A stretch of DNA of 6,008 nucleotides, from IMG/VR virus record IMGVR_UViG_2778261570_000020. The stretch is one strand, 5' to 3'. Positions 2,037 through 6,008 of the stretch are shown here, piece after piece. A program made the translations under genes and the position numbers. Within the stretch, counting starts at the first letter, position 1, and every line of letters starts with the position of its first letter. Origin of the DNA: a virus (taxonomy: Duplodnaviria > Heunggongvirae > Uroviricota > Caudoviricetes). The notes beneath the pieces were generated by a model that was given only the letters and a program-made list of their open reading frames with translations, was not told the DNA's origin and searched no databases.

Positions 2037-2528
2037 ATGGATCGTGAGTTGAAAAATCTGATGCTGAACATTAACCAACTGGCGGCAATAGCAGGTATAT
2101 GTCGTCAGACTGCGGCGGCAAGACTGCAAAACATCCAGCCCGCCGGAGGACATGACAAGTTAAAGCTCTACCGGGTGGCAGATATTGTGTCGGCATTTCT
2201 GGCATTACCACCGCCGGTTGCAGAAGGCGAAATGGACGCGCATGAGCGCAAAGCCTGGTATCAGTCTGAACGTGAGCGTCTTAAGTTCGAACAGGAAACG
2301 GCACAACTCATTCCGGCCAGTGATGTCAGACGGGAGTTTGCCATCTGGGCAAAAGCGGTCGTGCAGGTGCTGGAGACATTACCGGATATTCTTGAACGTG
2401 ACTGCGGTCTGCAGCCTGCCGCTGTGAGCCGTGTTCAGTCCATTATTGATGATCTGCGCGATCAGATAGCCCTGCGGGTGACTGAAGCAGGTGCGGATGA
2501 TGAGGAGGAATTACAGCAGGAGGAGTAA
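2037..2528 (+). CDS. Terminase small subunit, Nu1-like (164 aa)
   Basis: ATG at 2037 with a strong AGGAGGGG RBS. The N-terminus MDRELKNLMLNINQLAAIAGICRQTAAARL...KLYRVADIVSAF parallels the lambda Nu1 helix-turn-helix region (KKQLADIFGASIRTIQNW...VLYDSAAVIKWY), with an acidic C-terminus. Stop TAA 2526-2528 overlaps the ATG of the large-subunit gene (TAATG). The longer track ORF from 1950 would run through the cos-like region and is not preferred. Confidence 0.75.
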   Translation: MDRELKNLMLNINQLAAIAGICRQTAAARLQNIQPAGGHDKLKLYRVADIVSAFLALPPPVAEGEMDAHERKAWYQSERERLKFEQETAQLIPASDVRREFAIWAKAVVQVLETLPDILERDCGLQPAAVSRVQSIIDDLRDQIALRVTEAGADDEEELQQEE

Positions 2529-3523
2529 TGCTGAATCAGGAAACCGCAAAGGCAGCACGAACCGATTCAGGTTATATCCTTCGCGCACCGAGACGAATGC
2601 GGGTTGCTGATGCCGTTGCTCAGTATATGCGGGTGCCTATGGGGGCAGGGAACTCAGTCCCGTGGGATCCGCTGGTGGCACCGTATGTTATTGAGCCTAT
2701 GAACTGCCTGGCCTCGCGTGAATACGACGCAGTGATATTTGTTGGCCCGGCACGAACCGGCAAGACTATCGGCCTGATTGACGGCTGGGTGATTTACAAC
2801 GTGATTTGCGATCCTGCTGATATGCTGATCATTCAGATGACGGAGGAAAAAGCCCGCGAACACTCCAAAAAACGACTCGCCAGAACGTTTCGCGTCAGCC
2901 CGGAAGTGGTCAGTCGCCTGAGTCCGAACAAAAATGACAACAACGTTTATGACAGAACATTCCTTGCCGGCAATTACCTGAAAATCGGCTGGCCGTCAGT
3001 CAATATCATGTCCTCATCAGATTATAAATGTGTGGCGCTGACGGATTATGACCGTTTTCCGGAAGATATTGATGGTGAGGGGGATGCCTTCTCTCTTGCT
3101 TCAAAACGAACCACCACATTTATGTCCAGCGGTATGACGCTGGTGGAAAGTTCACCCGGCAGGGATGTGAAAGATGTGAAATGGCGACGGACTTCACCGC
3201 ATGAGGCTCCGCCAACCACGGGGATCCTGTCACTCTATAACCGTGGCGATCGTCGTCGCTGGTACTGGCCCTGCCCACACTGTGGTGAGTATTTTCAGCC
3301 CTGTGGCGATGTGGTTGCTGGTTTTCGTGATATTGCCGATCCCGTGCTGGCAAGTGAGGCAGCTTATATTCAGTGCCCTTCCTGTTCCGGGCGAATTATG
3401 CCTGACCAGAAACGCGAGCTGAACGGACGTGGGGTCTGGTTGCGGGATGGTGAATCCATCAATGCAGACGGCAGTCGTTATGGTGAGCCCCGGCGCTCAC
3501 GTATTGCGTCATTCTGGATGTAG
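2528..3523 (+). CDS. Terminase large subunit, GpA-like, N-terminal half only (331 aa; C-terminally truncated, likely remnant/pseudogene)
   Basis: Walker A-type motif VGPARTGKT and cysteine motifs WPCPHCGEYFQPCGD and CPSCSG that parallel lambda gpA (ACPHCGEEQYLKFGD, then GIWTRDG versus GVWLRDG here). Lambda gpA is about 640 aa; this frame stops at ...RIASFWM where gpA continues (...VTFHIWTAYSPF...), and no continuation is visible in any frame downstream. Confidence 0.8.
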   Translation: MLNQETAKAARTDSGYILRAPRRMRVADAVAQYMRVPMGAGNSVPWDPLVAPYVIEPMNCLASREYDAVIFVGPARTGKTIGLIDGWVIYNVICDPADMLIIQMTEEKAREHSKKRLARTFRVSPEVVSRLSPNKNDNNVYDRTFLAGNYLKIGWPSVNIMSSSDYKCVALTDYDRFPEDIDGEGDAFSLASKRTTTFMSSGMTLVESSPGRDVKDVKWRRTSPHEAPPTTGILSLYNRGDRRRWYWPCPHCGEYFQPCGDVVAGFRDIADPVLASEAAYIQCPSCSGRIMPDQKRELNGRGVWLRDGESINADGSRYGEPRRSRIASFWM

Positions 3524-3684: not shown

Positions 3685-4923
3685 ATGCCGGTAAAGCCAT
3701 TAACCGTGACTGAAGTTAAGGGGATGAAACCACGTGAAAAGGACTATGCCGTTTATGATGGGTTCGGTTTATTGCTGAATGTGAGTAAAGCTGGTGGGAA
3801 AGTGTGGCGTTTCCGTTATAGCCATCCGATAACGAAGAAACGGCAGACATACACGATAGGGCGTTTTCCTGAATTCTCACTCGCGGAAGCACGGGAAATA
3901 CGTGATGAACTTCGGCGAATGATTGCACGTGGAGTTGATCCAGTGACAGAGAAGAAAAATCGTAAAATTGAGATGTCACTAAAAAATCTACAAACATTTG
4001 AAGCTGTTGCTAATGCATGGATCGCTTTTAAAAAGGGATCGGAATTGCGGAAACCTACGCTGTATAATATCGAATATGAAGTATACAAATATCTTGTTCC
4101 TTTCTTTGGTAAGTACAGCATAGAGAAAATTACAGCGCCAGTAGCTATTAATGCTCTGGATGCCGTATCCGATAAGAATGCGTTGCAAAAAAAATTAATA
4201 TCAAGATTAAATGAAATTATGAATTACGCTGTAAATTGTGGAGCATTGAAAACGAATCCATTACTTAAGATAAAAACTGCATTCACAGGAAAGAAAAATA
4301 AATCATTAGCTGCACTACCTGTTGAAAGATTGCCTGAATTTCTGAGTTGGTGGGATAGTGTGCCTCATAAGTATCAAATAGCTCACAATGCACTTTTATT
4401 CCAGATATTGACAATGGTCAGGCCAGGTGAGGCGATTAAAGCAGAGTGGTCCGAGATTGATTTTGATTCTGGCTTGTGGATTATCCCTGCGCATAAAATG
4501 AAATGCCATCGTGAACATGTTGTGCCTCTCTCATCACAGGCTATTAGAATCCTAAGAACAATGCAGAAAATAAAAAGAGGGCGTTATATATTTTTTTCCT
4601 CCAGAACAAAAGATGCTCCTATGGGAAAGAATACTATCAATACCCCAATTGCTGCCAGCAAGTTCAAAGGGATTGTAACGTTACACGGTTTTCGTTCGAT
4701 GTGGAGTACGCTTTTAAATGAGGAGGGTTTTAACCCTGATGTTATTGAGGCTGCATTAGCACATAAAAGTGGTGATAAAATAAGAGATATTTATAATAGA
4801 ACTACTTATTTAGAACAACGCAAAATTATGATGCAATGGGTAGGAGATTTTTTTGATGAGGCGAGAAAAGGGGTAATTAATAGATCCGGTGGTAAGAAAG
4901 GTTTGAGAATAGTAAATGGTTGA
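3685..4923 (+). CDS. int: Tyrosine site-specific integrase, P4-type (412 aa)
   Basis: N-terminal arm-binding-type domain (MPVKPLTVTEVKGMKPREKDYAVYDGFGLLLNVSKAGGKVWRFRYSHP..., characteristic of P4-like integrases). Catalytic motifs are present: RPGE box (MVRPGEAIKAEW), HGFRSMWST (H-x-x-R) and the C-terminal tyrosine region AHKSGDKIRDIYNRTTY. RBS GAGGG upstream of ATG 3685. Gene is AT-rich relative to the terminase block. Confidence 0.9.
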   Translation: MPVKPLTVTEVKGMKPREKDYAVYDGFGLLLNVSKAGGKVWRFRYSHPITKKRQTYTIGRFPEFSLAEAREIRDELRRMIARGVDPVTEKKNRKIEMSLKNLQTFEAVANAWIAFKKGSELRKPTLYNIEYEVYKYLVPFFGKYSIEKITAPVAINALDAVSDKNALQKKLISRLNEIMNYAVNCGALKTNPLLKIKTAFTGKKNKSLAALPVERLPEFLSWWDSVPHKYQIAHNALLFQILTMVRPGEAIKAEWSEIDFDSGLWIIPAHKMKCHREHVVPLSSQAIRILRTMQKIKRGRYIFFSSRTKDAPMGKNTINTPIAASKFKGIVTLHGFRSMWSTLLNEEGFNPDVIEAALAHKSGDKIRDIYNRTTYLEQRKIMMQWVGDFFDEARKGVINRSGGKKGLRIVNG

Positions 4924-4935
4924 GGAGTTCAGCAA

Positions 4936-5139
4936 ATGAATACCAATGAAGATATTTTATTTACTAAAGACGTAATGAAAATTTTGCGCTATGGGGCAAT
5001 GAGCGCATTCATCAATTTCTGGAAAGATGAAAATAATGGTTTTCCTCAACCGTTCAGAATTGGGCGGCGGCATACCTGGCACCGTAGAGATGTAGAGGCA
5101 TGGTTAGATAAACAACGAGAACAGGCCAATCCCCACTAA
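4936..5139 (+). CDS. alpA: AlpA-family (excisionase-like) DNA-binding regulator (67 aa)
   Basis: Small protein immediately 3' of the integrase (13-bp gap, RBS GAGGAG). The pattern ...KDVMKILRYGAMSAFINFWKDENNGFPQPFRIGRRHTWHRRDVEAWLDKQ matches the AlpA / prophage CP4-57 regulatory protein architecture (HTH, then a conserved FP-x-P-hydrophobic-x-G motif, then W-x3-[DE]-x2-[EA]-W). Confidence 0.7.
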   Translation: MNTNEDILFTKDVMKILRYGAMSAFINFWKDENNGFPQPFRIGRRHTWHRRDVEAWLDKQREQANPH

Positions 5140-5153
5140 TAATATCTTTCATA

Positions 5154-5178
5154 CCCCGCACGCAATGCGGGGTTTTTT
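5154..5178 (+). terminator. Rho-independent terminator
   Basis: CCCCGCA (5154-5160), loop CGCAA, TGCGGGG (5166-5172), then TTTTTT (5173-5178). Confidence 0.75.
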
Positions 5179-5197: not shown

Positions 5198-5779
5198 ATG
5201 AATAAAAATATTGCCGTGACGGGCAAGGGGTACGCTCGTTCAGTAAAAAAATTCTGCGATATTCGTGATCTTGTCGTTCTGCGCTTTGATGGCGTGGATG
5301 TTCGTGTGGTGTATCTGAACGGCGATCCGTGGTTTGTTGCAAAGGATGTTTGTGAAGCTCTGGAAATAAGCAACTCACGCGATGCTCTAAAAGCTCTGGA
5401 TGTGGATGAGAAGAATACCGTCGCTTTAAGCTACGGTATTCGCGGAAATCCAAATCATAGCGTCGTTTCTGAATCTGGTTTTTACAAGCTGATCGCCAGA
5501 AGTCGCAAAGCTGTTACTCCTGGCACGTTCGCCCATCGTTTCAGTAATTGGGTATTCAGAAATGTGATACCGGGTATCAGAAAAACGGGGGCTTATGGTA
5601 TCCCGTGGGGCGCATTGCAGGATTTTTCCCGCCGCAAAGAGCAATACCGGATAAGTGCCAGCGAGAAGGGGAGGGCGCTACAGGCATGTAAGCGCAAAAA
5701 GCGTGAACTGGAGGAAGAAGAAAAAAGGCTGATACGTGAATATCAGCCTGAGTTTTACTTTGGTGAGCGTATTCAGTAA
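5198..5779 (+). CDS. Bro-N domain protein (phage antirepressor-like; 193 aa)
   Basis: RBS TGAGGT 8 nt upstream of ATG 5198. Conserved Bro-N signature blocks: VVLRFDGVDVRVVYLNGDPWFVAKDVCEAL...SRDALKALDVDEK, then SESGFYKLIARSRKA...FAHRFSNWVFRNVIPGIRKTGAYG. C-terminal 50 residues are highly charged (KRKKRELEEEEKRLIRE). Confidence 0.8.
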   Translation: MNKNIAVTGKGYARSVKKFCDIRDLVVLRFDGVDVRVVYLNGDPWFVAKDVCEALEISNSRDALKALDVDEKNTVALSYGIRGNPNHSVVSESGFYKLIARSRKAVTPGTFAHRFSNWVFRNVIPGIRKTGAYGIPWGALQDFSRRKEQYRISASEKGRALQACKRKKRELEEEEKRLIREYQPEFYFGERIQ

Positions 5780-5824
5780 CCGCGTACGGTGCTGATTATA
5801 CGGTACATCGTGTTAACCGGGAAG

Positions 5825-5939
5825 TTACCCACCAGCAAGGCAAAATCTTCTGCTAAAAAATGACATATGGCCAGTCGTCCGGAAAGCATGAAATTTTACA
5901 AAAATGGAAAATGAAGATTTTTATTGTGCTGGTGGGTAA
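5825..5939. repeat. Perfect 13-bp inverted repeat (TTACCCACCAGCA at 5825-5837 / TGCTGGTGGGTAA at 5927-5939) enclosing an 89-bp spacer
   Basis: Exact reverse-complement arms read directly from the sequence; the spacer contains the second copy of the direct repeat. Confidence 0.7.
5840..5897. repeat. Copy 2 of the ~58-bp imperfect direct repeat (perfect 20-bp core at 5876-5895)
   Basis: See copy 1 at 723-780; the core CGTCCGGAAAGCATGAAATT is identical in both. Confidence 0.7.
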
Positions 5940-5970
5940 AAACAAAAAGCGCCCCGTTGCCGGAGCGCCC
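5938..5970 (-). terminator. Possible intrinsic terminator for a minus-strand transcript entering from beyond the right edge
   Basis: On the minus strand GGGCGCUCCGG-CAAC-GGGGCGC forms an imperfect GC-rich hairpin (about 8 bp including one G-U) followed by UUUUUGUUUUU (plus-strand AAAAACAAAAA at 5938-5948). Confidence 0.35.
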
Positions 5971-6008
5971 TTGCGAACAATTAACCTACTGCGCAAAAAA
6001 TGAATCTG

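Follow-up and report, generated by a model that had tools for sequence, protein, structure and literature searches.

Exact Chi octamers in both arms of a 13-bp inverted repeat at the base of a predicted hairpin in a helper-embedded PICI satellite

Helper-embedded PICIs are satellites whose architecture has been described previously (PMC10111431), with an int gene, an alpA gene, a Bro zone, a replication zone and a late zone in this order, inserted in a late gene of the prophage and co-oriented with it. Inverted repeats and small RNAs are not mentioned by those words in that study. The immunity region of P4, in which the Bro-network gene eta is found together with the CI RNA and seqA (PMC10111431), offers a second point of comparison. 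Mobile elements with Chi are well known, as are stable 3′ stem-loops. Chi sites accumulate in those lambdoid phages that lack RecBCD inhibitors (PMC3784561, PMC12315714), and with the terminase genes placed to the left it is the top-strand orientation that is active (PMC12315714); within the 3′ flank of Chi, A or G at nucleotides 4–7 (e.g. AAAA) enhances cutting while C or T depresses it (PMC5041463). Stable stem-loops in 3′ untranslated regions include RNase III retroregulation sites such as λ sib.

Here we examined a stretch of 6,008 bp from the viral record IMGVR_UViG_2778261570_000020 (Caudoviricetes), referred to as the window. Its left half is a lambdoid prophage with the end of an M15 endolysin gene, a gene for a spanin-like lipoprotein and small cargo genes, followed by a DUF1441 small terminase gene (2037–2528, identified by domain search) and a gene for a gpA-type large terminase (2528–3523), of which only the ATPase half is present, the gene stopping after that domain at 331 codons. 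The element that interrupts terL has a tyrosine integrase gene at 3685–4923, followed by a gene for an AlpA-like protein (4936–5139, domain search) and, on the plus strand, by a bro gene with a Bro-N domain (5198–5779; PF02498, E = 1.6e-18). In the related locus L125, the N-terminal part of terL (16751–17743) is followed by the satellite and then by the C-terminal part of terL (27899–29020), and in E. coli SCU-125 the C-terminal half resumes about 10 kb after the break. The SCU-125 element continues with a YlcI/YnfO-family gene, an icd-like gene, genes for a RepA helicase and an SSB, a prohead protease/capsid fusion and a DUF1441 gene of its own. The window is a lambdoid prophage in which a helper-embedded PICI satellite splits terL, the satellite having the same zones and the same co-orientation as the described elements (PMC10111431).

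A strong intrinsic terminator on the plus strand (5153–5173) was observed between alpA and bro, so that expression of bro may require read-through or a promoter belonging to bro itself. A hairpin of 9–10 bp within the 3′ end of bro (5726–5749) is followed by a T-run on the minus strand and could stop antisense transcription escaping the sRNA terminator and the repeat hairpin described below. Within the helper part, a sub-threshold Rfam match to GcvB was found at 1277–1412 on the plus strand (25.7 bits, the gathering score being 42; E = 0.013). The match spans the 3′ end of a small cargo gene, the G/U-rich GUAGUGAUGAUUUUAUGU and a terminator at 1386–1405, and could be either an sRNA derived from a 3′ untranslated region, with a GcvB-like seed, or a chance match.

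A preliminary description of this DNA, made from its letters, had pointed to a perfect 13-bp inverted repeat with an 89-bp spacer. Our repeat search of the window returned the same pair, TTACCCACCAGCA at 5825–5837 and TGCTGGTGGGTAA at 5927–5939, which are 100% complementary over 13 nt and 89 nt apart. No other perfect inverted repeat of at least 13 nt with a loop of at most 150 nt exists in the whole window, and such a repeat appeared in 7 of 1000 dinucleotide-preserving shuffles of the window (40 of 1000 when repeats of at least 12 nt were counted). In most related sequences the outermost pair of the arms is a C·A mismatch, which makes 12 bp the usual arm length. The repeat lies in the 3′ untranslated region of bro, in the spacer between bro and a convergent, sRNA-like gene on the minus strand.

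Within the 13-bp repeat, a perfect 9-bp inner stem pairs AAAATCTTC (5842–5850) with GAAGATTTT (5913–5921), both given as on the plus strand, in the minimum-free-energy structures of RNA from both strands and of DNA. The two stems form a composite hairpin of 22 bp with a 4 × 5-nt internal loop, the two sides of which are unlike (AGGC vs. TATTG), and with about 60 nt enclosed. Folding of the repeat region gave −37.6 kcal/mol for the plus-strand RNA (z = −4.4 relative to shuffles) and z-scores of −5.5 for both the minus-strand RNA and the DNA, so that RNA of either strand and DNA alike fold far better than shuffled sequences. Presumably the RNA hairpin forms and matters. The 5825–5939 hairpin is not an intrinsic terminator, because a U-tract is absent after it on both strands, the plus strand continuing with AAAAACAAAA and the minus strand with CTTCCCGG. 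A retron msr/msd region, with its a1/a2 repeats, was ruled out because there is no reverse transcriptase gene nearby, and a cos site or a replication origin at the repeat seemed unlikely from position alone, as gene order and the usual layout of such elements would put these elsewhere.

The decisive property of the arms, absent from the preliminary description, is that each of them contains an exact E. coli Chi octamer, GCTGGTGG, which in the right arm occupies 5928–5935 of the top strand and in the left arm 5829–5836 of the bottom strand, the two copies being oppositely oriented. The right-arm Chi is co-oriented with terS/terL, as λ-active sites are (for the satellite, the direction of packaging is deduced solely from the order of its genes), and its 3′ flank is GTAAAAA, so that nucleotides 4–7 read AAAA, the preferred context. 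The left-arm Chi, on the other hand, is oriented opposite to the terminase genes, and its 3′ flank is GTAACTT, with the disfavoured ACTT (GCTT in most copies) at nucleotides 4–7. Thus, the published rules on orientation and 3′ flank fit the right arm and not the left. RecBCD may act on these sites, and the left arm would then be a passenger. Chi cannot by itself account for five further identical flank bases or for the 9-bp inner stem, and at about 1 Chi per kb an inverted Chi pair within 100 bp is unremarkable in itself.

Chi is over-represented throughout the satellite family. The window holds 5 Chi sites vs. 0.18 in shuffles, the satellite of E. coli SCU-125 has 9 (0.23 expected), the CFT073 island has 8 (0.19 expected) and the helper prophage around the satellite has 15 (1.4 expected). 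Among 29,168 strand-collapsed octamers, Chi ranked first in 52 mutually related satellite segments totalling 473 kb (for example, L125 17744–27898 and L003 2924–10072), where it occurred 510 times, 295 on the top strand and 215 on the bottom, which is more than twice the count of the runner-up, itself a Chi overlap. The density in the PICI family is about 1.1 per kb, roughly 40-fold what shuffles predict. Chi sites cluster in the non-coding zone around the sRNA (−115, −16 and +211), and the Chi 211 nt to the right of the sRNA terminator is kept in 79 of 82 loci. No Gam or Abc2 gene, as a RecBCD inhibitor, is annotated in the satellite.

The satellites thus resemble the Chi-rich lambdoid phages and E. 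coli Chi (PMC3784561, PMC12315714) in having the exact octamer, in its strong enrichment and in being mobile elements with no annotated RecBCD inhibitor, and the right arm resembles them in its top-strand position relative to the terminase genes and its purine-rich 3′ flank. They differ in that the carrier is a PICI satellite and not a phage, and in a strand ratio of 295 to 215 compared with about 7:1 on one strand in the phages. A further difference is that two copies, here putative Chi sites, are complementary to each other within one predicted hairpin. The word "satellite" is absent from the main text of both Chi studies (PMC12315714 and PMC3784561), and a full-text literature search on Chi/RecBCD in PICI satellites gave no title or abstract addressing the topic. 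The over-representation of Chi on both strands of PICI satellites may perhaps be new in detail.

The inverted repeat had also been said to enclose the second copy of a direct repeat, and it does: the direct repeat, of 56 nt and with 75% identity between its copies, lies at 723–778 (copy 1) and 5840–5895 (copy 2). Both copies belong to a hairpin motif, here denoted by D1, which is about 65 nt long, is hypervariable in its central 13 nt and is found directly after the endolysin/spanin genes of many lambdoid prophages and in two satellite lineages. With a covariance model, D1 was located on the plus strand at 718–792 for copy 1 (94 bits, consistent with its fold), directly 3′ of the helper's spanin-like lipoprotein gene, and at 5835–5909 for copy 2 (74.9 bits, together with variant lists and pair counts), in which the 19-mer GTCCGGAAAGCATGAAATT occupies 5877–5895 and the hypervariable centre about 5862–5876. 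The preliminary description was right that copy 1 has no such inverted-repeat arms, and it has no Chi arms either, but a closing stem of its own, of 8 bp (AGCAGAAT/ATTCTGCT), is present.

More than 100 viral contigs have the 19-mer, which in nearly all cases immediately follows the final lysis gene of a lambdoid prophage, and the copy-1-type motif has the same position in more than 100 viral contigs. In the predicted fold of the phage type, a GCAGAAT/ATTCTGC closing stem, a TGCT/AGCA stem and a variable inner hairpin are stacked. Other sites of the motif include L125 13911–13985 and L171 2115–2189, and the covariance model revealed more copies without the exact 19-mer, some after endolysin genes and others in the second satellite lineage, whose closing stem shares part of its 3′ strand with a top-strand Chi (ATTTTGCTGGTGG). 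In the "phages" collection the repeat unit was unmatched and the phage-type D1 copy matched only phiP27 and one Actinobacillus phage, while species-representative genomes gave four chance matches to the 19-mer, in unrelated phyla. The occurrence of this hairpin motif after lysis genes may also be new in detail.

Over 70 distinct D1 sequences, pairing was kept in 83% of cells and in 88% of those in the outer helix. The closing-stem pairs 9–63 and 10–62 exchange among G-C, A-U and G·U, and a third pair is G·U in 31 of 70 rows, as would suit RNA of the plus strand better than DNA or minus-strand RNA. Support from covariation is modest: the score, from an alignment fitted to the model, was 0.153, compared with 0.115 in shuffles (above all 500) and 0.03–0.08 with slid partners; in this model-fitted alignment, pairs changed on both sides numbered 8 vs. 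6.5 in shuffles, a value reached by 88 of 500 shuffles. It is probable, but unproven, that D1 is a structured RNA. In the predicted structure of the satellite copy, the repeat arms and the inner stem lengthen the base of the D1 hairpin.

To see how the repeat unit varies, we compared the junction types upstream of the sRNA terminator and found it in 32 of 80 related satellite copies; the junctions without it have a truncated bro, or alpA directly adjacent. As the unit is absent from most satellites of the family, it is dispensable. Wherever present, it is linked to the same bro 3′ end. All copies are at least 95% identical with no covariation within the arms, and because of this identity the conservation of the arms at homologous loci, which the preliminary description had taken as a test of the structure, cannot discriminate. 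Two arm variants were seen, both G·U-compatible on the plus strand, which is weak evidence for pairing in RNA. The right-arm Chi was lost in three sequences and the left-arm Chi in one; the arms are decaying in the variants L076 and L125, and the natural deletion variant L183 keeps the right arm while the left one is gone. A metagenome scan gave six near-identical copies of the unit and no added diversity. In one metagenome contig (L188, 7225–7417), the sRNA is replaced, immediately behind AAAAAGCGCCCCGT, by another terminator and by a sequence in which the eye recognises an apparent tRNA gene 3′ end; the junction is either a different integration context or an assembly chimera.

On the minus strand, a terminator scan identified an intrinsic terminator with a stem of 12 pairs, 7 of them G-C (5972–5945), followed by a T-run at 5944–5935 that overlaps the right arm, and the probable minus-strand terminator of the preliminary description is confirmed by this. 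Relatives that extend past the window have, immediately after base 6008, an extended −10 promoter that does not vary (TGATATAAT). On the minus strand it precedes the terminator by about 75 nt, and the upstream minus-strand gene has a terminator of its own. The sRNA promoter and terminator are kept even where the middle of the RNA differs between lineages. This conserved pair indicates that the terminator ends a putative sRNA of about 72 nt, and not a protein gene. The body of the sRNA, at 5940–6008, is cut by the end of the window and its continuation can be seen at L001 9160–9266.

Of 5426 complete E. coli genomes, 420 share the segment 5937–6008, among them O157:H7 and CFT073 with its prototype island EcCICFT073. 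The sRNA pattern gave no matches in species-representative genomes, and Rfam scans, including C4 and isrK, gave no match at E ≤ 1 in 5780–6008 or in the whole homologous region of L002. Pairing of the sRNA with the D1 hairpin motif was considered and dropped, as many duplexes had similar energies and that with the motif copy came no higher than sixth. Judged by its conserved signals, the minus-strand RNA is an undescribed, widely conserved sRNA candidate, perhaps new in detail.

A frame scan of the satellite loci showed that a plus-strand frame starting at 5915 and open to the end of the window (6008) remains stop-free for 300–820 codons in 53 of the 61 distinct loci. Before it enters the icd-like gene, it crosses the sRNA, a small hypothetical gene and the YlcI/YnfO gene in antisense, as well as intergenic DNA, with continuations at L126 3638–5026, L125 20179–21231 and L003 4760–6046, and in the variants with alpA adjacent it begins with an ATG about 20 nt after the alpA stop. 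The frame recalls eta of P4, whose translation controls read-through. As in the P4 immunity region (PMC10111431), a regulatory small RNA would lie inside the Bro zone of a satellite and a long reading frame starting just after alpA spans the RNA gene; unlike in P4, the sRNA is on the opposite strand and matches neither the C4 nor the isrK family of Rfam, and the inverted repeat has no described counterpart there. Beside the sRNA, on the minus strand and shortly past the window end, proteins of the YlcI/YnfO family are encoded (L001 9623–9802, L125 20625–20822, L003 5467–5646). They have 59–65 residues, are homologous between satellites and close with a basic tail that is conserved as RRQRRKAKEQE or a similar sequence. 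Judged by eye, they look like small DNA-binding proteins of the ribbon-helix-helix kind and would thus be candidates for repressors.

An ATG at 5860 opens a plus-strand frame of 47 codons ending with a stop at 6001–6003, as the preliminary description had it, and the doubt expressed there about its coding proved justified, since the frame is not conserved. Only 10 of 21 distinct versions keep the 47 codons; in the other 11 the start, stop, frame or length is lost, with five losses of the stop, three earlier stops, one frameshift caused by an extra A, one nonsense change at codon 14 and one loss of the start. Every substitution in codons 1–6, which correspond to the hypervariable centre of the motif, alters the residue, and the 3′ half is conserved in satellites and islands that have no 5′ half. 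There is no Shine-Dalgarno sequence before the frame and no Pfam match to it, and it is missing from all gene tables examined. The ATG, the short hydrophobic run KIFIVLVG and the overlap with the antisense sRNA might suggest a small basic protein, or a type I toxin under the control of that sRNA; however, that run is too short for a membrane helix and, given the broken frames, such a product is scarcely credible. A type I toxin-antitoxin locus was ruled out by the comparison of variants, and we judge that the 47-codon ORF is not a gene.

How the repeat arose and what it does can be explained in several ways. Among the architectures considered in the preliminary description, a paired operator, a long RNA stem and the termini of a miniature element, only the RNA stem survives, with the arms extending the base of a recurrent hairpin motif. 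Terminal inverted repeats around a unit of about 115 bp would suit a miniature transposable element, but no target-site duplication is present (GAAG vs. AAAC at the flanks), the flanks are identical in every copy, a search for the arm 12/13-mer found none beyond this junction in 1.7 Mb of related loci, and the phage motif to which the interior is homologous lacks arms; this origin is barely conceivable. An operator pair, bound for instance by Bro-N or by the YlcI/YnfO-family protein of the minus strand and looping about 100 bp of DNA, would agree with the centre-to-centre distance of 102 bp, close to ten helical turns, and with the DNA-binding proteins encoded on both sides. It is nevertheless very unlikely, for there is no further arm copy in the 1.7 Mb searched, no sigma-70-like promoter in or beside the unit (5780–5945) and no internal palindrome to make the arms half-sites, and most satellites with these neighbouring genes and regulators do not have the unit. 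Perhaps the hairpin serves only at the RNA level, as a stabiliser of the 3′ untranslated region or an RNase III site, and Chi is a coincidence of a G+C-rich stem. The fold statistics and the covariation of the motif, with G·U pairs on the plus strand, are in its favour. The probability of Chi in either orientation in a 13-bp stem is, however, about 2e-4 under uniform composition, an estimate from octamer frequency and not a simulation, and by estimate remains well below 1% even at the local Chi density; as Chi adjoins the motif in the second lineage as well, we find coincidence quite improbable.

It is also conceivable, if unlikely, that both arms were selected only as DNA signals for RecBCD and became complementary through inverted duplication or template switching, with no role for a hairpin. 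The arms would then face outwards, so that RecBCD arriving from either side meets an active Chi first. Chi is indeed the top-ranked octamer and common on both strands, each arm is the first correctly oriented Chi from its own side, and L183 keeps the right arm alone; what such selection leaves unexplained is the disfavoured 3′ flank of the left arm, the 9-bp inner stem and the extension of an already predicted hairpin motif, and a simple template switch would have copied the internal loop too, yet its sides are AGGC and TATTG. The unit could otherwise be a neutral relic, in which the hairpin and Chi, functionless in themselves, are by-products of recombination in the fast-changing Bro zone and of the general Chi enrichment, tied to one bro allele. 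Its presence in a minority of junction types, its constant linkage to one bro 3′ end, the decaying arms in L076 and L125, and a diversity so low that conservation is untried by time are all consistent with this, which we nevertheless regard as rather improbable: the repeat is statistically unusual (7 of 1000 shuffles), the right-arm Chi has an optimal flank and the active orientation, and the interior motif recurs in several lineages with covariation.

The reading that we prefer, tentatively and as one that falls somewhat short of probable, is that the repeat forms the outer stem of an elongated plus-strand RNA hairpin that carries Chi, the left arm being the obligatory complement. Between bro and the sRNA, in non-coding DNA, the 13-bp repeat would close a long hairpin as its outer stem, and the interior would be an elongated copy of the lambdoid post-lysis motif. 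It would be transcribed on the plus strand as the 3′ untranslated region of bro and by read-through of the helper's late transcription. At the point where bro transcripts would run into the antisense sRNA, the stable stem would most likely be a 3′ barrier or a processing structure, and we infer 3′ protection or RNase III processing as its role in the RNA. In this it resembles λ sib and other stable stem-loops or RNase III retroregulation sites of 3′ untranslated regions, having a long imperfect stem with an internal loop (13 + 9 bp), downstream of a gene and with no U-tract, in a region of convergent and antisense transcription; there is no sequence similarity, and the analogy is one of form only.

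Such a stem would be constrained in its complementarity and not in its sequence, and the free sequence could have been taken over by Chi under strong Chi selection. The right arm, in the λ-active orientation and with its AAAA flank, would be a functional Chi, at which RecBCD that had entered packaged or rolling-circle DNA by its open right end would be switched from degradation to RecA loading, while the left arm would have a bottom-strand Chi in a poor context just because it must complement the right. A hairpin with Chi of this kind accounts for the octamers in both arms, their unequal contexts, the identical flanks, the inner stem and the presence of Chi beside the motif elsewhere.

A more specialised role, which seems highly improbable to us, is that of a dedicated device for protecting DNA ends. 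RecBCD would nick just 3′ of the right-arm Chi, and the 3′ tail ending in TGCTGGTGGGTAA would fold back onto the left arm about 100 nt upstream, giving a self-primed or hairpin-capped end closed to re-entry of RecBCD, by which a satellite with no annotated Gam could survive rolling-circle replication or entry. If this were true, the Chi on the 3′ side of the same motif in the second lineage would be there by design.

The comparison removes a false small gene, assigns the terminator flagged earlier to an sRNA candidate and defines a recurrent hairpin motif after phage lysis genes. Established principles are unchanged, and we consider the result ordinary to moderately interesting. What had been an anonymous palindrome becomes a testable object, two Chi signals in a satellite without an annotated RecBCD inhibitor. 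If these satellites depend on host RecBCD-Chi recombination as Chi-rich lambdoid phages do, their replication, their survival during transfer and the shuffling of their Bro zone would be affected.
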